A DNA stretch of 8,170 nt from a virus (Duplodnaviria; Heunggongvirae; Uroviricota; Caudoviricetes), in IMG/VR virus record IMGVR_UViG_2778261088_000001; one strand, written 5' to 3'. Below are positions 1-8,120 of this stretch, one piece after another. The notes beneath the pieces were generated by a model, which was not told where the DNA came from, did not search any database, and worked only from the letters and a program-made list of their open reading frames with translations. The stretch's first letter is position 1. Every line of letters starts with the position of its first letter. The translations under genes and the position numbers were made by a program.

Positions 1-191
1 AATCGGTGGAGCTGCATGACAAAGTCATCGGGCATTATCTGAACATAAAACACTATCAATAAGTTGGAGTCATTACCACCTTCATCTACATAAAAACCTT
101 CGTGATGTCTGCATGGAGACAAGACACCGGATCTGCACAACATTGATAACGCCCAATCTTTTTGCTCAGACTCTAACTCATTGATACGCAT
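1..191 (-). CDS. ea8.5: Ea8.5-like protein, N-terminal 63 codons (gene runs off the left edge of the window)
   Basis: Minus-strand ATG at 191-189 preceded by AGGAG (CAAGGAGTTTATAA-ATG); frame stays open to position 1, reading MRINELESEQKDWALSMLCRSGVLSPCRHHEGFYVDEGGNDSNLLIVFYVQIMPDDFVMQLHR. Position left of ea22 matches lambda gene order. Identification from memory. Confidence 0.6.
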   Translation of the reverse strand, partial: MRINELESEQKDWALSMLCRSGVLSPCRHHEGFYVDEGGNDSNLLIVFYVQIMPDDFVMQLHR

Positions 192-382
192 TTATAAACT
201 CCTTGCAATGTATGTCGTTTCAGCTAAACGGTATCAGCAATGTTTATGTAAAGAAACAGTAAGATAATACTCAACCCGATGTTTGAGTACGGTCATCATC
301 TGACACTACAGACTCTGGCATCGCTGTGAAGACGACGCGAAATTCAGCATTTTCACAAGCGTTATCTTTTACAAAACCGATC

Positions 383-931
383 TCACTCTCCTTTGATGCG
401 AATGCCAGCGTCAGACATCATATGCAGATACTCACCTGCATCCTGAACCCATTGACCTCCAACCCCGTAATAGCGATGCGTAATGATGTCGATAGTTACT
501 AACGGGTCTTGTTCGATTAACTGCCGCAGAAACTCTTCCAGGTCACCAGTGCAGTGCTTGATAACAGGAGTCTTCCCAGGATGGCGAACAACAAGAAACT
601 GGTTTCCGTCTTCACGGACTTCGTTGCTTTCCAGTTTAGCAATACGCTTACTCCCATCCGAGATAACACCTTCGTAATACTCACGCTGCTCGTTGAGTTT
701 TGATTTTGCTGTTTCAAGCTCAACACGCAGCCTCCCTACCGTTAGTGCAATATCCTCGTTCTCATTGTCGCGGCGTTTGACGTATTGCTGGTTTCTTTCC
801 CGTTCATCCAGCAGTGCCAGCACAATCGATGGTGTTACCAGCTCATGGAAAAGGTCAGCGTCAAATCCCCAGTTGTCATGCATTGCCTGCTCTGCCGCTT
901 CACGCAGTGCCTGAGAGTTAATTTCGCTCAC
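383..931 (-). CDS. ea22: Ea22-like protein (182 aa), exo-xis region
   Basis: 182-codon ORF in the track; same length and position as lambda ea22. Start codon is GTG (plus-strand CAC at 929-931) and overlaps the orf73 stop by GTGA, implying translational coupling. Confidence 0.8.
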   Translation of the reverse strand: MSEINSQALREAAEQAMHDNWGFDADLFHELVTPSIVLALLDERERNQQYVKRRDNENEDIALTVGRLRVELETAKSKLNEQREYYEGVISDGSKRIAKLESNEVREDGNQFLVVRHPGKTPVIKHCTGDLEEFLRQLIEQDPLVTIDIITHRYYGVGGQWVQDAGEYLHMMSDAGIRIKGE

Positions 932-1149
932 TTCGAACCTCTCTGTTTACTGATAAGCTCCAGATCTTCCTGGCAACTTGCACAAGTCCGACAACCCTGA
1001 ACGGCCAGGCGTCTTCGCTCATCTATGGGATCGCCACACTCACAACAATGAGTGGCAGATATAGCCTGGTGGTTCAGGCGGCGCATTTTTATTGCTGTGT
1101 TGCGCTGTAATTCTTCAATTTCTGATGCTGAATCAATGATGTCTGCCAT
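928..1149 (-). CDS. orf73: TraR/DksA-family C4 zinc-finger protein (lambda Orf73-like, 73 aa)
   Basis: 73-codon ORF with two Cys pairs (HCCECGDPI and QGCRTCASC) typical of TraR/DksA C4 zinc fingers; sits between ea22 and the orf61 region as in lambda. Confidence 0.8.
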   Translation of the reverse strand: MADIIDSASEIEELQRNTAIKMRRLNHQAISATHCCECGDPIDERRRLAVQGCRTCASCQEDLELISKQRGSK

Positions 1150-1200
1150 CTTTCATTAATCCATGAATTGTTGGTTAATACGCTTGAGGGTGAATGCGAA

Positions 1201-1225
1201 TAATAAAAAAGGAGCCTGTAGCTCC
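1201..1225 (-). terminator. Candidate intrinsic terminator on the minus strand (GC hairpin plus T6)
   Basis: Plus strand 1205-1225 is AAAAAA-GGAGC-CTGTA-GCTCC; on the minus strand that is a 5-bp GC stem with 5-nt loop followed by TTTTTTATTATT, 23 nt downstream of the 1248 stop codon. Confidence 0.45.
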
Positions 1226-1247
1226 ATGATGATTTTGTTTTTCATGC

Positions 1248-1529
1248 TCACCGTTCCTTAAAGACGCCGTTTAACATGCCGATCGCCAGGCTTAAATGAG
1301 TCGGTGTGAATCCCATCAGCGTTACCGTTTCGCGGTGCTTCTTCAGTACGCTACGGCAAATGTCATCGACGTTTTTATCCGGAAACTGCTGTCTGGCTTT
1401 TTTGATTTCAGAATTAGCCTGACGGGCAATACTGCGAAGGGCGTTTTCTTGCTGAGGTGTCATTGAACAAGTCCCATGTCGGCAAGCATAAGCACACAGA
1501 ATATGAAGCCCGCTGCCAGAAAAATGCAT
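1248..1529 (-). CDS. orf61: Hypothetical protein from the orf61 region; frame and length differ from the lambda reference as I recall it
   Basis: 93-codon ORF from ATG 1529, no convincing SD; alternative start at ATG 1463 (MTPQQENALR...). An upstream in-frame ATG at 1559 overlaps orf63 by 20 nt, as lambda orf61 does, but is separated from this ORF by TGA at 1532-1530. See findings. Confidence 0.45.
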   Translation of the reverse strand: MHFSGSGLHILCAYACRHGTCSMTPQQENALRSIARQANSEIKKARQQFPDKNVDDICRSVLKKHRETVTLMGFTPTHLSLAIGMLNGVFKER

Positions 1530-1539
1530 TCAGTGGTTG

Positions 1540-1731
1540 TCATACCTGGTCTCTCTCATCTGCTTCTGCTTTCGCCACCATCATTTCCAGCTTTTGTGAA
1601 AGGGATGCGGCTAACGTATGAAATTCTTCGTCTGTTTCTACTGGTATTGGCACAAACCTGACTCCAATTTGAGCGAGGCTATGTGCCATCTCAATGCTCG
1701 TTCTTAACTCAACAGGAGATGCTTTGTGCAT
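1540..1731 (-). CDS. orf63: Orf63-like protein (63 aa), exo-xis region
   Basis: 63-codon ORF; length and position match lambda orf63; overlaps orf60a by 28 nt. Confidence 0.7.
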   Translation of the reverse strand: MHKASPVELRTSIEMAHSLAQIGVRFVPIPVETDEEFHTLAASLSQKLEMMVAKAEADERDQV

Positions 1732-1886
1732 ACAGCTCCCCGTTTATTATTTATCTCCTCAGCCAGCCGCTGTGCTTTCAGGGGATTTCGGGTAACAGAA
1801 AGGCCGGGAAATACCCAGCCTCGCTTTGTAACGGAGTAGACGAAAGTGATCGCGCCTACCCGGATATTATCGTGAGGATGCTTCAT
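1704..1886 (-). CDS. orf60a: Orf60a-like protein (60 aa)
   Basis: ORF track gives 62 codons from ATG 1892; I place the start at ATG 1886-1884, which overlaps the exo TGA stop (1883-1885) in an ATGA coupling arrangement and gives the 60 codons of lambda orf60a. Confidence 0.65.
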
Positions 1887-2563
1887 CGCCATTGCTCCCC
1901 AAATACAAAACCAATTTCAGCCAGTGCCTCGTCCATTTTTTCGATGAACTCCGGCACCATCTCGTCAAAACTCGCCATGTAATTTTCATCCCGCTCAACC
2001 ACGACATAATGCAGGCCTTCACGCTTCATTCGTGGGTCATAGTTGGCAAAGTACCAGGCATCTTTTCGCGTCACCCACATGCTGTACTGCACCTGGGCCA
2101 TGTAAGCCGATTTTATGGCCTCGAAACCACCGAGCCGGAATTTCATGAAATCCCGGGAGGTAAACGGGCATTTCAGTTCAAGGCCGTTGCCGTCACTGCA
2201 TAAACCATCGGGAGAGCAGGCGGTGCGCATACTTTCGTCGCGATAGATGATCGGGGATTCAGTAACATTCACGCCGGAAGTGAACTCAAACAGGGTTCTG
2301 GCGTCGTTCTCGTACTGTTTTCCCCAGGCCAGTGCTTTAGCGTTAACTTCCGGAGCCACACCGGTGCAAACCTCGGCAAGCAGGGTGTGGAAGTAGGACA
2401 TTTTCATGTCAGGCCACTTCTTTCCGGAGCGGGGTTTTGCTATCACGTTGTGAACTTCTGAAGCGGTGATGACGCCGAGCCGTAATTTGTGCCACGCATC
2501 ATCCCCCTGTTCGACAGCTCTCACATCGATCCCGGTACGCTGCAGGATAATGTCCGGTGTCAT
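1883..2563 (-). CDS. exo: Lambda-type 5'-3' exonuclease Exo (Red alpha), 226 aa
   Basis: 226-codon ORF; sequence ([37 protein letters not shown]...GFVFGEQWR) matches lambda Exo as I remember it; ATG overlaps the bet stop. Confidence 0.95.
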
Positions 2564-3345
2564 GCTGCCACCTTCTGCTCAGTGGCTTTCTGTTTCAGGA
2601 ATCCGAGAGCTTTCACTGCTTCGACCTGTGTCAGTTCTGACGATGCGCGAATGTCGCGGCGAAATATCTGGGAACAGAGCGGCAATAAGTCGTCATCCCA
2701 TGTTTTATCCAGGGCAATCAGCAGAGTGTTAATCTTCTGCATGGTTTCATCGTTAACCGGAGTGATGTCGCGTTCCGGCTGACGTTCTGCAGTGTATGCG
2801 GTATTTTCGACAATGCGCTCGGCTTCATCCTTGTCATAGATACCAGCAAATCCGAAGGCCAGACGGGCACACTGAATCATGGCTTTATGACGTAACATCC
2901 GTTTGGGATGCGACTGCCACGGCCCCGTGATTTCTCTGCCTTCGCGGGTTTTGAATGGTTCGCGGCGGCATTCATCCATCCACTCGGTAACGCAGATCGG
3001 ATGATTACGGTCCTTGCGGTAAATCCGGCATGTGCAGGATTCATTGTCCTGCTCAAAGTCCATGCCATCAAACTGCTGGTTTTCATTGATGATACGGGAC
3101 CAGCCATCAACGCCCACCACCGGAACGATGCCGTTCTGCTTGTCAGGGAAGGCGTAAATTTCTTTCGTCCACGGATTAAGGCCGTACTGGTTGGCGACGA
3201 TCAACAATGCGATGAACTGCGCATCGCTGGCATCGCCTTTAAATGCCGTCTGGCGAAGAGTGGTGATCAGTTCCTGTGGGTCGACAGAATCCATGCCGAC
3301 ACGTTCAGCCAGCTTCCCAGCCAGCGTTGCGAGTGCTGTACTCAT
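2560..3345 (-). CDS. bet: Lambda-type single-strand annealing protein Bet (Red beta), 261 aa
   Basis: 261-codon ORF; matches lambda Bet in length and recalled sequence; sits between gam and exo. Confidence 0.95.
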
Positions 3346-3350
3346 CCGTT

Positions 3351-3767
3351 TTATACCTCTGAATCAATATCAACCTGATGGTGAGCAATGGTTTCAACCA
3401 TGTACCGGATGTGTTCTGCCATGCGCTCCTGAAACTCAACATCGTCATCAAACGCACGGGTAATGGCTTTTTTGCTGGCCCCGTGGCGTTGCAAATGATC
3501 GATGCATAGCGATTCAAACAGGTGCTGGGGCAGGCCTTTTTCCATGTCGTCTGCCAGTTCTGCCTCTTTCTCTTCACGGGCGATCTGCTGGTAGTGACGC
3601 GCCCAGCTCTGAGCCTCAAGACGATCCTGAATGTAATAAGCGTTCATGGCTGAACTCCTGAAATAGCTGTGAAAATATCGCCCGCGAAATGCCAGGCTGA
3701 TTAGGAAAACAGGAAAGGGGGTTAGTGAATGCTTTTGCTTGATCTCAGTTTCAGCATTAATATCCAT
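3351..3767 (-). CDS. gam: Gam (RecBCD inhibitor), 138-codon long form with an internal start for the 98-aa short form
   Basis: 138-codon ORF matching lambda Gam. Internal ATG at 3647-3645 ([12 protein letters not shown]...) is preceded by AGGAG (plus-strand CTCCT at 3655-3659), the classic short-form start. Confidence 0.93.
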
Positions 3768-3865
3768 TTTTTATAAGCGTCGACGGCTTCACGAAACATC
3801 TTTTCATCGCCAATAAAAGTGGCGATAGTGAATTTAGTCTGGATAGCCATAAGTGTTTGATCCAT
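3722..3865 (-). CDS. kil: Kil (host cell-division inhibitor), 47 aa
   Basis: Within the 89-codon ORF 3722..3991, ATG at 3865-3863 preceded by AGGAG gives 47 aa ([47 protein letters not shown]), matching lambda Kil; overlaps the 3' end of cIII. Confidence 0.85.
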
Positions 3866-3998
3866 TCTTTGGGACTCCTGGCTGATTAAGTATGTCGATA
3901 AGGCGTTTCCATCCGTCACGTAATTTACGGGTGATTCGTTCAAGTAAAGATTCGGAAGGGCAGCCAGCAACAGGCCACCCTGCAATGGCATATTGCAT
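3834..3998 (-). CDS. cIII: CIII (FtsH inhibitor that stabilises CII), 54 aa
   Basis: Within the 78-codon ORF 3834..4070, ATG at 3998-3996 preceded by AAGGAG gives 54 aa ([54 protein letters not shown]), matching lambda CIII. Confidence 0.88.
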   Translation of the reverse strand: MQYAIAGWPVAGCPSESLLERITRKLRDGWKRLIDILNQPGVPKNGSNTYGYPD

Positions 3999-4070
3999 GG
4001 TGTGCTCCTTATTTATACATAACGAAAAACGCCTCGAGTGAAGCGTTATTGGTATGCGGTAAAACCGCAC

Positions 4071-4439
4071 TCAGGCGGCCTTGATAGTCATATCATCTGA
4101 ATCAAATATTCCTGATGTATCGATATCGGTAATTCTTATTCCTTCACTACCATCCATTGGAGGCCATCCTTCCTGACCATTTCCATCATCCCAGTCGAAC
4201 TCACAAACAACACCATATGCATTTAAGTCTTTCGAAATTGCTATAAGCAGAGCATGTTGCGCCAGCATGATTAATACAGCATTTAATAAAGAGCCGTGTT
4301 TATTTAGTCGGTATTCAGAGTCTGACCAGAAATTATTAATCTGGTGAAGTTTTTCCTCTGTCATTACGTCATGGTCGATTTCAATTTCTATTGATGCTTT
4401 CCAGTCGTAATCAATGATGTATTTTCTGATGTTTGACAT
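4071..4439 (-). CDS. ea10: Ea10-like protein, 122 aa
   Basis: 122-codon ORF at the lambda ea10 position; ATG 4439 preceded by GAGGA. Confidence 0.8.
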   Translation of the reverse strand: MSNIRKYIIDYDWKASIEIEIDHDVMTEEKLHQINNFWSDSEYRLNKHGSLLNAVLIMLAQHALLIAISKDLNAYGVVCEFDWDDGNGQEGWPPMDGSEGIRITDIDTSGIFDSDDMTIKAA

Positions 4440-4455
4440 CTGTTCATATCCTCAC

Positions 4456-4485
4456 AGATAAAAAATCGCCCTCACATTAGAGGGC
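4456..4485 (-). terminator. Candidate intrinsic terminator on the minus strand between ral and ea10 (tL2-like position)
   Basis: Stem GCCCTC (4468-4473) / GAGGGC (4480-4485) with 6-nt loop; on the minus strand it is followed by GATTTTTTATCTG, immediately upstream of the ea10 RBS. Confidence 0.45.
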
Positions 4486-4621
4486 AAAGAAGATTTCCAA
4501 TAATCAGAACAAGTCGGCTCCTGTTTAGTTACGAGCGACATTGCTCCGTGTATTCACTCGTTGGAATGAATACACAGTGCAGTGTTTATTCTGTTGTTTA
4601 TGCCAAAGATAAAGGCTACCA

Positions 4622-4823
4622 TCAGGCAGCCTTGTTGTTCTGTTTGTCAAGTTCTCTGGCAATCATTGCCGTCGTTCGTATTGCCCATTTATCGACATAT
4701 TTCCCATCTTCCATTACAGGAAACATTTCTTCCAGGCTTAACCATGCATTCCGATTGCAGCTTGCATCCATTGCATCGTTTGAATTGTCCACACCATTGA
4801 TTTGTATCAATAGTCGTAGTCAT
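4622..4823 (-). pseudogene. ral: ral (restriction alleviation) disrupted by a +1 frameshift
   Basis: ATG at 4823-4821 opens a frame reading MTTTIDTNQWCGQFKRCNGCKLQSECMVKPG... that stops after 44 codons; the -1 frame (track ORF 4622..4810) carries the Ral C-terminus EEMFPVMEDGKYVDKWAIRTTAMIARELDKQNNKAA. The two join into a 66-aa Ral if one C is removed from TTCTTCCAGG near 4730-4734. Confidence 0.6.
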
Positions 4824-4893
4824 ACGGATAGTCCAGGTATTGTTCCATCACATCCTGAGGATGCTCTTCGAACTCTTCAAATTCTTCTTCCAT
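4807..4893 (-). CDS. Small acidic ORF (28 aa), lambda orf28-like
   Basis: ATG at 4893-4891 preceded by TAAGGTGATAT; translates MEEEFEEFEEHPQDVMEQYLDYPYDYDY, stop at 4809-4807; overlaps the ral start. Very short, so the call is tentative. Confidence 0.35.
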   Translation of the reverse strand: MEEEFEEFEEHPQDVMEQYLDYPYDYDY

Positions 4894-4945
4894 ATATCAC
4901 CTTAAATAGTGGATTGCGGTAGTAAAGATTGTGCCTGTCTTTTAA

Positions 4946-5080
4946 CCACATCAGGCTCGGTGGTTCTCGTGTAAAGGGCATGCCAAGCAAGTCGATGCTG
5001 CATATGCAAAAGAATGCGCGCTGGAAGGTATGGCGAGAACACAGGTTATCTGGCTGAAAGAGGGGGTTATTAAGGCGTGA
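4946..5080 (+). pseudogene. 3' fragment of a ybcO-like (DLP12 nin-region) gene, lacking its start
   Basis: Frame opens after TAA at 4943-4945 with no start codon and reads [44 protein letters not shown]; the last ~30 residues match my recollection of the YbcO C-terminus. Stop at 5078-5080 overlaps the rusA GTG (GTGA). Confidence 0.45.
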
Positions 5081-5439
5081 ATACCTACAGCATCACATTA
5101 CCCTGGCCTCCGAGCAATAACCGCTACTACCGGCATAATCGCGGGCGCACGCACATCAGCGCAGAAGGGCAGGCATACCGTGATAACGTCGCCCGAATCA
5201 TTAAAAACGCAATGCTGGATATCGGCCTGGCTATGCCTGTGAAAATCCGCATTGAGTGCCACATGCCGGATCGCCGTCGCCGTGACCTGGATAATCTGCA
5301 AAAAGCCGCTTTTGACGCACTCACTAAAGCAGGTTTCTGGCTGGATGATGCTCAGGTCGTTGATTACCGCGTTGTGAAGATGCCTGTTACCAAAGGTGGG
5401 AGGCTGGAACTGACCATCACCGAAATGGGGAATGAATGA
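5077..5439 (+). CDS. rusA: RusA Holliday-junction resolvase, 120 aa
   Basis: 120-codon ORF with GTG start; [26 protein letters not shown]...[12 protein letters not shown] matches DLP12 RusA as I recall it. Confidence 0.92.
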
Positions 5440-5576
5440 TGTTTGAGTTTAATATGGCAGAACTTCTTCGCCACCGCTGGGGGCGTCTGCGCTTATATCG
5501 TTTCCCCGGTTCTGTTTTGACCGATTACCGAATACTGAAGAATTACGCCAAAACCCTGACAGGAACAGGAGTATGA
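5436..5576 (+). CDS. ylcG: YlcG-like small protein, 46 aa
   Basis: Not in the ORF track (too short). ATGATG at 5436 overlaps the rusA stop; translates [46 protein letters not shown], stop at 5574-5576; sits between rusA and the Q gene as in DLP12. Confidence 0.6.
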
Positions 5577-5661
5577 AGTCAGAGATAACAATCAACTAAT
5601 ACTGTTTTGTTGATTTTTGCTTGTAATTGGCGTTCTGGTCTGATTTTTGTGGAGTAAGTTG

Positions 5662-6045
5662 ATGCGTGATATTCAGATGGTTCTTGAGCGTTGGGGTGCG
5701 TGGGCGGCTAATAATCATGAAGATGTGACCTGGTCGTCCATTGCCGCCGGTTTTAAGGGATTAATTCCTTCAAAAGTAAAATCTCGCCCGCAATGTTGTG
5801 ACGATGACGCGATGATCATTTGCGGGTGCATGGCCCGTCTGAAAAAGAACAACAGCGATTTACACGATTTATTAGTAGATTATTATGTATGTGGTATGAC
5901 ATTCATGTCACTGGCAAGTAAGCATTGCTGCTCGGATGGTTATATCGGGAAAAGGTTACAGAAGGCTGAGGGCATAATTGAAGGGATGTTAATGGCATTA
6001 GATATCCGGTTAGATATGGATATCGTTGCTAATAATTCTAATTGA
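5662..6045 (+). CDS. quuD: Q-family late-gene antiterminator (QuuD-like), 127 aa
   Basis: Track ORF begins at TTG 5647; I place the start at ATG 5662, preceded by GGAG with 7-nt spacing ([24 protein letters not shown]...). Contains a Cys cluster ([12 protein letters not shown]). Matches DLP12 QuuD from memory. Confidence 0.88.
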
Positions 6046-6233: not shown

Positions 6234-7316
6234 TTAGAACTGATAAACCAGACCTACAGCGACGATGTCGTCGGTATCAATACCAGCTGTTTTGGTAAAC
6301 TTACTATCGTCAATTAAGTTGATTTTGTAATCAACAAAAGTGGACATGTTTTTATTAAAGTAGTAAGTAGCACCGACATCGACATACTTGACTAAGTCTC
6401 GGTCACCATGAACACCAAGGTCTTTACCTTTTGACTGAAGGTAAGCAACAGATGGGCGCAGACCGAAGTCAAACTGATATTGTGCTACTGCTTCAAAGTT
6501 TTGTGCTTTGTTTGCAATATGGTTATTACCAAAAACGGTCATATTCTGAGTTTCAGAATATGTGGTAGCCAGATAGATATTGTTCGCATCATATTTCAGG
6601 CCTGCAGCCCATACTTCCGCATTTTTGCCGGAGGCATTGAATTTGCTCTTACCATAGGCGACCTGACCGTCAGTGCGATCTGATTTAGCATAGGTTGCAC
6701 CCACGCCGAATCCTTCATACTCATAAGTAGTGGAGAAACCGAAACCATCACCATTGGCTTCAGTTACGTCAGTGCGGTCATTTTTACCCTGATACTGAGC
6801 AGCAAAGTTCAGGCCATCGACCAGACCAAAGAAGTCGTTGTTACGATAAGTTGCAACACCAGTAGTGCGACCAGTCATGAACACATCTGTTTGGGTCCAG
6901 GTATCACCACCGAATTCTGGCAGAACGTCAGTCCACGCACCGATGTCGTATGCTACACCGTAGTTACGGCCGTAATCGATTGAGCCGTAATCACCAAATT
7001 TCAGGCCTGCAAATGCAAGACGGGTTTTGTCTTTGGAAGAACCTTGAGATTCAGCACGGTTGCCTTTGAATTCATATTCCCACTGACCGAAACCAGTCAG
7101 TTGATCGTTGATTTGGGTTTCACCTTTGAAGCCAAGACGGGCATAAGTAGTATCACCATCATCTGCATCATTAGAGGAGAAGTAGTGCTTGGCATTAACT
7201 TTCCCGTATAGATCCAGCTTGTTACTGTCTTTATTATAAATTTCAGCTGCCTGAGCAGACATCGCCATCAGTACTGATGCAGCTACAGCAGAAATTGCCA
7301 CTGTTAATTTTTTCAT
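6234..7316 (-). CDS. nmpC: Outer-membrane general porin precursor (NmpC/Lc/OmpC family), 360 aa, apparently intact
   Basis: Track ORF is 380 codons from ATG 7376; I call ATG 7316, which gives a classic signal peptide ([23 protein letters not shown] / AEIYNKD). The protein ends in the porin C-terminal Phe (...VGLVYQF). No insertion element interrupts it. Confidence 0.92.
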
Positions 7317-7410: not shown

Positions 7411-7742
7411 AGTTTCTCATTTAATTTGTGAAGTAGATCTCTATTTTTATCTGAACCTTTTCTATCTAATCCTATTCATGGCTCTTGTCTGAACAAAAAT
7501 AAATCTATTAGCTAATTTATATTAATGGCACTTATTTATAAGTGCTCTATAATTCTTTAGCTTAATTTAAACAAACTAAAAATAACATCGGAAATTATTG
7601 GCTGGTTATTTGTTGAAGTTTTCTTATGTATTTGTGGTGGTATTTTGAACACTCGGTGGCATTCTCACAAATATCATTTAGTAGTTTACGTACGTAAAAA
7701 ATTGGTTATGCTGTTAAGAGTGGTTACTTCGTCACACAGCTT

Positions 7743-7904: not shown

Positions 7905-8120
7905 ATGAAATCCATGGATAAGTTAACAACGGGTGTCGCCTATGGTACCTCAGCAGGTAGTGCCGGGTACTGGTTTTTACAGTTGCTCGATAAAGTCACG
8001 CCCTCACAGTGGGCGGCAATAGGTGTGCTGGGAAGTCTAGTTCTGGGCTTTTTGACTTATCTGACAAATCTTTATTTCAAGATTAAAGAAGATAAGCGTA
8101 AGGCTGCACGGGGAGAGTAA
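7905..8120 (+). CDS. essD: Class II holin/pinholin, phage-21 S21-like (EssD-like), 71 aa with a dual-start motif
   Basis: 71-codon ORF; [31 protein letters not shown]... matches S21/EssD from memory; Met1-Lys2-Ser-Met4 dual start; RBS GAGGTGG upstream; charged C-terminal tail. Confidence 0.9.

Follow-up and report, generated by a model that had tools for sequence, protein, structure and literature searches.

The systems closest to the locus described here are phage lambda, the DLP12 prophage of E. coli K-12 and a type of lambda-family phage in which ninX precedes rusA. In this last type, the intact gene order is int...ral, sieB, N, two genes, cI, cro, cII, O, P, ren, ninB, a methylase gene, ninE and ninX, followed by a ybcO stump, rusA, ylcG, Q, a porin gene and a holin gene. 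The ybcO stump was found behind ninX in 585 of 5426 complete E. coli genomes and also in viable phages. It is thus the normal layout, indicating that the truncation of ybcO is ancestral and not a product of the deletion described below. Lambda carries ninC-ninI together with its own Q, S and R and an intact ral. DLP12 is a lambdoid remnant without immunity and replication genes, with intD at argU; its left side consists of an exo fragment only, a full-length ybcO follows ybcN-ninE, and its nmpC is broken by IS5.

Here, we analyzed a stretch of 8,170 nucleotides (IMG/VR record IMGVR_UViG_2778261088_000001), hereafter referred to as the window. It shares with lambda the cIII thermoregulator and a collinear left arm, whereas rusA-ylcG-quuD-porin is found instead of the lambda genes named above and ral is broken. 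The rusA-ylcG-quuD block is 97-98% identical to that of DLP12 from position 4991 onwards, but neither the ybcN-ninE-full-length ybcO arrangement nor the K-12 nmpC allele (~88%) is present in the window, and the deletion history of DLP12 differs. The viable phage PhiR11_1_star (PV340548.1) and the ninX-type prophages at attLambda (L009, L010, L014 and the L031 group) display the order of both window flanks, int-xis-ea22-exo-bet-gam-kil-cIII-ea10-ral and ninX-'ybcO-rusA-ylcG-Q-porin-holin, at identities of 98.0-99.96% on the left and about 99% on the right. Unlike the window, they keep the 7.7-7.8 kb from sieB to ninX and have no IS1 in ea8.5.

These comparisons suggest that the window very probably belongs to a lambda-family prophage in decay, most likely inserted at attLambda next to ybhC, which would have undergone one internal deletion of approximately 7.7-7.8 kb by illegitimate recombination; the relatives serve as the basis for the remainder of the prophage and for its chromosomal location. 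The deletion would start 45 bases ahead of sieB and reach as far as the final 20 bases of the ninX-rusA spacer, with the ends joined across a 3-base GTA match and no involvement of an insertion sequence or att site. The deletion itself is ordinary prophage decay, and the recurrent break point described below is the only noteworthy part.

Lambda-type left arm

The genome of lambda (NC_001416) aligns from 29542 to 34437 in a single piece to the left arm at 97.9% identity (4896 bases), with 104 differences and 2 single-base indels in the base-level alignment. The genes exo-bet-gam-kil-cIII-ea10-ral-orf28 are collinear with lambda at high identity, as in a pL operon of the lambda family. Open frames were observed for ea22, the traR-like gene, orf61, orf63, orf60a, exo, bet, gam, kil, cIII, ea10 and orf28, and the six proteins compared (Exo, Bet, Gam, Ea10, Ea22 and Orf28) are 1-5 residues off their lambda counterparts. 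A one-base change relative to lambda at position 1397 leads to a product of 71 residues, as annotated in other E. coli prophages, rather than the 61-residue orf61. The lambda homology stops at 34437, and N, nutL and pL (lambda 35037-35651) are absent from the window.

Table 1. Features of the window.
Feature	Position	Strand	Basis or remark
IS1, terminal 77 bases, abutting lambda 29542 within ea8.5	1-77		
Early-left (pL) operon segment, lambda type	78-4973	-	Alignment to lambda
ea8.5 stump	78-191	-	
ea22	383-931	-	
traR-like	928-1149	-	
orf61-like	1248-1463	-	
orf63	1540-1731	-	
orf60a	1704-1886	-	
exo	1883-2563	-	
bet	2560-3345	-	
gam	3351-3767	-	
kil	3722-3865	-	
cIII	3834-3998	-	
cIII mRNA thermoregulator element	3953-4011	-	Rfam RF01804, 88.5 bits (gathering score 50)
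ea10	4071-4439	-	
Two terminator-like hairpins with T runs (4633-4612, 4487-4466), ral/ea10 interval	4466-4633	-	Consensus scan
ral pseudogene, inactivated by one extra C at 4732	4622-4823	-	Insertion relative to lambda 34196
orf28	4807-4893	-	
Rest of lambda orf28-sieB intergenic region (lambda 34358-34434)	4894-4970		Alignment to lambda
Deletion junction, GTA in both parents (3-base microhomology)	4971-4973		Parent/window comparison
ninX-rusA spacer, last 17 bases (4974-4990), and ybcO/DUF1364 90-base 3' stump (4991-5080)	4974-5080	+	
rusA, Holliday junction resolvase, intact	5077-5439	+	ORF; 98.5-99% to relatives
ylcG	5436-5576	+	ORF; annotated in relatives
quuD-type Q antiterminator	5662-6045	+	127-residue ORF; length and position as quuD in K-12 and relatives
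Porin, phage-borne, nmpC/OmpD/Lc type, intact	6234-7316	-	
essD-type holin	7905-8120	+	ORF

An exact-protein look-up with the Ea22 protein of the window located a group of prophages (L031, L032, L034-L036 and L038) that are 99.94-99.96% identical to the left arm, with 2-3 mismatches and no gaps. All of these adjoin ybhC at attLambda, which argues against argU as the location of the window, and all extend past position 4973 into sieB-N-cI-cro-cII-O-P. Since such near-identical relatives continue into sieB, the loss appears to be recent on that background. E. coli B REL606 has a different prophage at attLambda. The extra C in ral, which splits the gene into ORFs at 4689-4823 and 4622-4810, is also found in the attLambda prophages L031-L038 in gapless alignment; being common to 99.95%-identical relatives, the frameshift is older than the deletion. 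We also observed that O is out of frame across the ori iteron region in L031 (950-1790), L036 and L032, which suggests that the lineage was replication-defective before the deletion took place.

The first 77 bases of the window are 100% identical to the IS1 ends of L004, L033, L037 and L038, and at this point L031-L036 run uninterrupted into ea8.5, xis and int. With IS1 in ea8.5, a frameshift in ral, and cI, cro, O and P in the missing stretch, the window displays the features of a defective (cryptic) prophage.

Right arm

At the DNA level, the porin region is about 99% identical to other prophages and about 88% identical to the nmpC region of K-12, and the exact 360-residue porin was found in 27981 blocks of the protein collection. 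Within rusA, six base changes are clustered in 61 bases (5121-5181), including one that gives V27I; the cluster is missing from nine relatives aligned base by base and may be a gene-conversion patch from an unsampled rusA copy. One of the six changes is located in the reported HusR box inside rusA. Most relatives diverge after position 8107, and L015 alone continues to 8170 with a DUF1327 gene and a gene for a 177-residue lysozyme; the segment 8107-8170 marks a mosaic boundary within the lysis cassette.

Position and structure of the junction

Comparison of the window with its parents located the junction to three bases. In the left parent (L031 and lambda) the sequence reads ...TTCTCGTGTA/CCCC, where the slash marks the end of the match, and in the right parent (L014 and L029) it reads ...ATTGCCGGTA/AAGGGC. 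The window reads ...TTCTCGTGTA/AAGGGC, with GTA alone as the overlap. Homology to the rusA block begins at 4971 in comparisons with ninX-type phages and prophages, but only at 4991 in the comparison with K-12 DLP12. L014 and L029 are collinear for both flanks, which together with the GTA overlap characterizes the event as a microhomology-mediated illegitimate deletion. The flank alignments span kilobases at 98-99.9% identity, and chance is thus not an issue.

An earlier reading of the sequence alone (the sequence-only reading) had placed a deletion junction in a defective prophage between positions 4894 and 5080. The junction is real and the flanks are collinear in intact relatives, with cI, cro, O and P gone. 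However, alignment to lambda and DLP12, which that reading had proposed for mapping the break point and any microhomology, puts the break at 4971-4973 with GTA, 30-70 bases to the right of the 4900-4945 given there as the end of the lambda sequence. That reading also saw a ybcO-like ORF from 4946 fused into the rusA block. A ybcO stump does precede rusA, but true homology to ybcO (DUF1364) starts only at 4991. The open frame from 4946 consists of lambda DNA to 4973 and 17 spacer bases before ybcO is reached; it has no start codon before the ATG at 5030, and the lambda portion is in frame by chance. The stump overlaps the start of rusA and is not translatable as such; relatives have it annotated as a partial DUF1364 gene.

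The lambda-derived part contains an inverted repeat, AACCAC-N10-GTGGTT, at 4944-4965. The predicted RNA fold here is not more stable than those of shuffled sequences (z = 0.74). No insertion sequence was detected at 4894-5080, the sole one in the window being that at 1-77, in contrast to L003, L005 and L033, which retain one at the join. The best match in the window to the att core GCTTTTTTATACTAA is located at 7511-7525, with 3 mismatches and approximately 2.5 kb from the junction, and the Chi site GCTGGTGG is not found in the window.

Both flanks occur in the same order and on the same strand in PhiR11_1_star, 7845 bases apart, and are collinear in the prophages L009, L010 and L014, 7716 bases apart. 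The stretch lost from the window comprises sieB, N with nutL, pL, two genes at the rex position, cI, cro, cII, O with ori, P, ren, ninB, a Dam-like methylase gene, ninE and ninX. All genes listed as missing in the sequence-only reading are among them, although the last five had been overlooked. Its view that lambda had been spliced to a DLP12-type block did not hold, as both flanks belong to a single natural type of lambda-family phage, of which intact examples exist.

A related explanation is that a chromosomal rearrangement joined two resident prophages, one lambda-like and one DLP12-like at argU. We consider this very improbable, even though K-12 DLP12 matches the right side at 97-98% identity between 4991 and about 6270, and several lambdoid prophages with a rusA block are often present in one E. 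coli genome, at up to 6 places. Bases 4971-4990 agree with the ninX-type spacer and not with DLP12, the porin region reaches only about 88% identity to K-12 nmpC as compared to 99% to ninX-type prophages, and a single phage has both flanks with order and orientation conserved. Moreover, a rearrangement between these two sites, attLambda and argU, would come with the deletion or inversion of about 200 kb of chromosome.

We found no other record of the exact junction in 5426 complete E. coli genomes, GTDB species representatives, IMG/VR and JGI metagenomes, and no exact protein match on record for the junction-spanning ORFs or the frameshifted ral ORF. An assembly artefact joining two real loci could produce such a pattern; the window also resembles a whole short-read contig, with a 77-base IS1 repeat at its edge as is typical of k-mer-length overlaps. 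Yet this is hardly credible, since three common bases are far too few for a graph assembler to bridge, and since joins no more than 2 nt away from this right-hand position also exist in a complete genome (NZ_CP098195, L007) and in nine other assemblies.

A recurrent right-hand break point

The right end of the junction, GCCGG/TAAAGGGCATGCC, was found with eleven distinct left partners, ranging from xis to O and all joined within 2 nt. This count includes the window, the confirmed DNA joins and P0004, which was seen as protein only. The left partner lies inside N in L045, inside cro in L041 (7225; cI and pL are kept) and inside O in L007 (6173). It is orf63 in L039 (8017) and L040, orf60a in L057, a site next to xis in L043 (2888) and L044, and the DLP12-type int side in L042 (1470). 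In L047 (3605) and L130 the left partners are two sites 24 bases apart in a gene beside ea22. The DNA joins read as x/TAAAGGGCATGCC, and the join in L130 as /AAAGGGC.

A search of the protein collection with the frame across the join identified at least nine different N-termini, including that of the ninX-type parent P0007, each of them joined immediately ahead of KGHAKQ, which corresponds to window position 4973. Microhomology of 2-4 bases, always including TA, was present in all seven joins (7/7) with a traced left parent.

In samples unbiased by ORF calling, 3 of 106 loci with the rusA-side core sequence contained such a join. One further locus of the 106 had an end 22 bases further left, and four had ends in ninX, 170-184 bases upstream of the core, two of which were identical; the remaining loci were parent-like or mosaic. 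The reverse product, in which the spacer is kept and the rusA side lost, was found in 0 of 88 cases, with the spacer leading to the parental right side in 88 of 88.

The complete genome NZ_CP098195.1 (L007, 6001-6176) contains both the left end of the window (lambda 34437) and its right end. Between them is a filler of 134 bases of gene O (lambda 38747-38880) in direct orientation, flanked by GTA and TAAA overlaps and giving an in-frame fusion to the ybcO stump. Given this locus, the window may possibly have arisen by a two-step or template-switch history instead of one simple deletion. In one such history the window would descend from an L007-like intermediate (lambda 34437, 134 bases of O, rusA block) from which the O filler was lost between TAA repeats. 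Both outer ends are those of the window, and deletion between the flanking TAA triplets would produce its exact sequence. However, the chromosomal flank of L007 is only about 99.0% identical to that of the closest relatives of the window, the L031 group, whose prophage is 99.95% identical to its left arm. The L007 and window lineages thus differ. A general hot spot at the right end also removes half of the coincidence, and L007 is equally explained by one event with two template switches. We therefore regard descent from such an intermediate as unlikely, and continue with the single deletion as the preferred reading.

Because at least ten other deletions stop within 2 nt, we propose that the joining in the window would have involved a DNA end of a kind that arises time and again at GCCGG/TAAAGGG, either made there or trimmed back to this position. 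The fixed right end, the varied left ends, the short matches and the L007 filler fit repeated priming, for which the sequences suggest a minus-strand 3' end at 4971/4972. On this basis we advance, tentatively and with the odds somewhat against it, that GCCGG/TAAAGGGCATGCC, which ninX-type lambdoid phages carry about 100 bases before rusA, is a one-sided hot spot of illegitimate recombination at which a 3' end is repeatedly made or halted. Such an end could come, for example, from a strand-specific nick, a site-specific nuclease or fork breakage; it would prime on short TA-containing matches up to about 10 kb leftward, and the 134 bases of gene O in L007 would represent an intermediate stop of the same process.

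We looked for local features that could explain the fixed right end and found no hairpin, repeat, Chi site, insertion sequence or att core that does so. Single-stranded DNA folds of the parent spacer were no better than shuffles (z = 0.79 and -0.27), and its repeats were weak only. A Cfr10I-type site, GCCGGT, is located at the break point, and a cut of its bottom strand would give exactly the proposed 3' end; we regard this as coincidence only. The deleted region contains two other RCCGGY sites.

Two further candidates were rejected. A pseudo-end of IS1 was discarded because, by eye, GG is not kept at the joins and microhomology is always there. Self-targeting by CRISPR was discarded because an AAG motif and a possible protospacer to the right of the join survive every deletion, so that cutting would persist. 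In the literature we found no account of this break point for rusA/ybcO deletions, nor of microhomology deletions in lambdoid prophages of E. coli.

A second cluster of right ends was observed inside ninX, at 14517-14536 of L029 and 170-184 bases upstream of the core, in L052, L116, L056 and L085. L052 and L116 have different left partners and the common end /AAGCCCAAT. A stretch of 50 bases at this cluster is about 90% identical to an inverted stretch near 1850-1899 of L004 and seems to mediate another rearrangement (L129).

The junction represents one more case of the disarming of a lambdoid prophage: the immunity and replication functions disappear, and the chromosome keeps the recombination genes together with a Holliday junction resolvase, a porin and a lysis cassette. 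Many unrelated strains have varied losses to the left and are cut at the same few bases on the right. If these bases form a specific break or stall site, one step of prophage domestication, commonly regarded as random, would gain a mechanistic explanation. The phage would then itself carry a site that promotes inactivation of the prophage, with rusA, Q, the porin and the lysis genes spared every time.

Expression around the junction

IS insertions upstream of rusA reportedly switch the gene on in K-12. A change upstream of rusA could in principle shift expression, and the junction might be functionally active, with rusA-ylcG-quuD or orf28-ral under a new promoter. Such new promoter activity had been suggested from the sequence alone, but finds no backing here. 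A consensus scan, beyond which weak and non-sigma-70 promoters lie, gave no sigma-70-like promoter in 4400-5700, against a chance expectation of 2.7. In our own scoring the best candidates at the junction reached 5.1 on the plus strand and 7.6 on the minus strand, at or below the background of the window (median best 7.3 per 300 bases; pL and pR score 12-13). The best minus-strand candidate is located entirely within native lambda sequence. Likewise, no convincing site was found for a sieB promoter upstream of lambda 34437 that could be fused to rusA, and the best candidate -10 for sieB, at lambda 34459, is within the deleted part.

Furthermore, leftward transcripts would meet two terminator-like hairpins in the absence of N; we take these hairpins to correspond to the tL2 terminator region of lambda. 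For K-12, a 2026 study reports binding of the regulator HusR upstream of rusA and activation of rusA-ylcG by it in stationary phase (PMC12844172). The upstream HusR box sits in the 5' part of ybcO and is absent from the window, whereas the box inside rusA is present with one mismatch. Low expression of chromosomal rusA has been described (PMC12844172, citing Mahdi et al. 1996).

Taken together, an active junction is improbable, and the join is probably transcriptionally inert. The sequence-only reading had noted that exo-bet-gam-kil-cIII are left without promoter or antiterminator, and indeed pL, N and nutL are all part of the missing stretch, as is pR. The red, gam, kil and cIII genes are predicted to be silent, with no pL, no N and terminator-like hairpins in the path, and rusA-ylcG-quuD would be expressed weakly at best, as they are in K-12.

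Independent losses of the same region

Losses of immunity and replication genes are frequent and independent among lambdoid prophages of E. coli. In F247 (L001) the deletion runs from lambda 34452 to the middle of the methylase gene, and in LR-46 (L002) it extends to ylcG. The loss occurred via IS5 in LR-71-1 (L003), via ISEc52 in E5 (L005) and via IS1 in GCA_040813385 and another assembly (L033, L037). F247, LR-46, LR-71-1, E5, Z0117EC0098 and GCA_040813385 represent the same class of event as the window, with survival of the red genes and/or the rusA-Q-porin-lysis block, but each has end points of its own and several have an insertion sequence at the join.

The sequence-only reading had also argued that survival requires pL and cI to be lost together, since loss of cI alone would derepress kil. 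This agrees with L001, L002, L003, L005, L007, L033, L039, L043 and L045. L041 differs, as its deletion starts inside cro and cI, pL and N are kept, so that the repressor is retained.

In L033 (6072-6785) and L037 (1-77), an IS1-bounded deletion extends from inside ea10 (equivalent to window position 4147) to beyond Q. The prophage lineage is that of the window relatives, and this is a separate route to losing the same region. Finally, in O26 genomes, such as NC_013361.1 (898977-899791), the 42 bases upstream of sieB, sieB, cII and O are located within 815 bases. This compact arrangement implies a further deletion that took N, pL, cI and cro.
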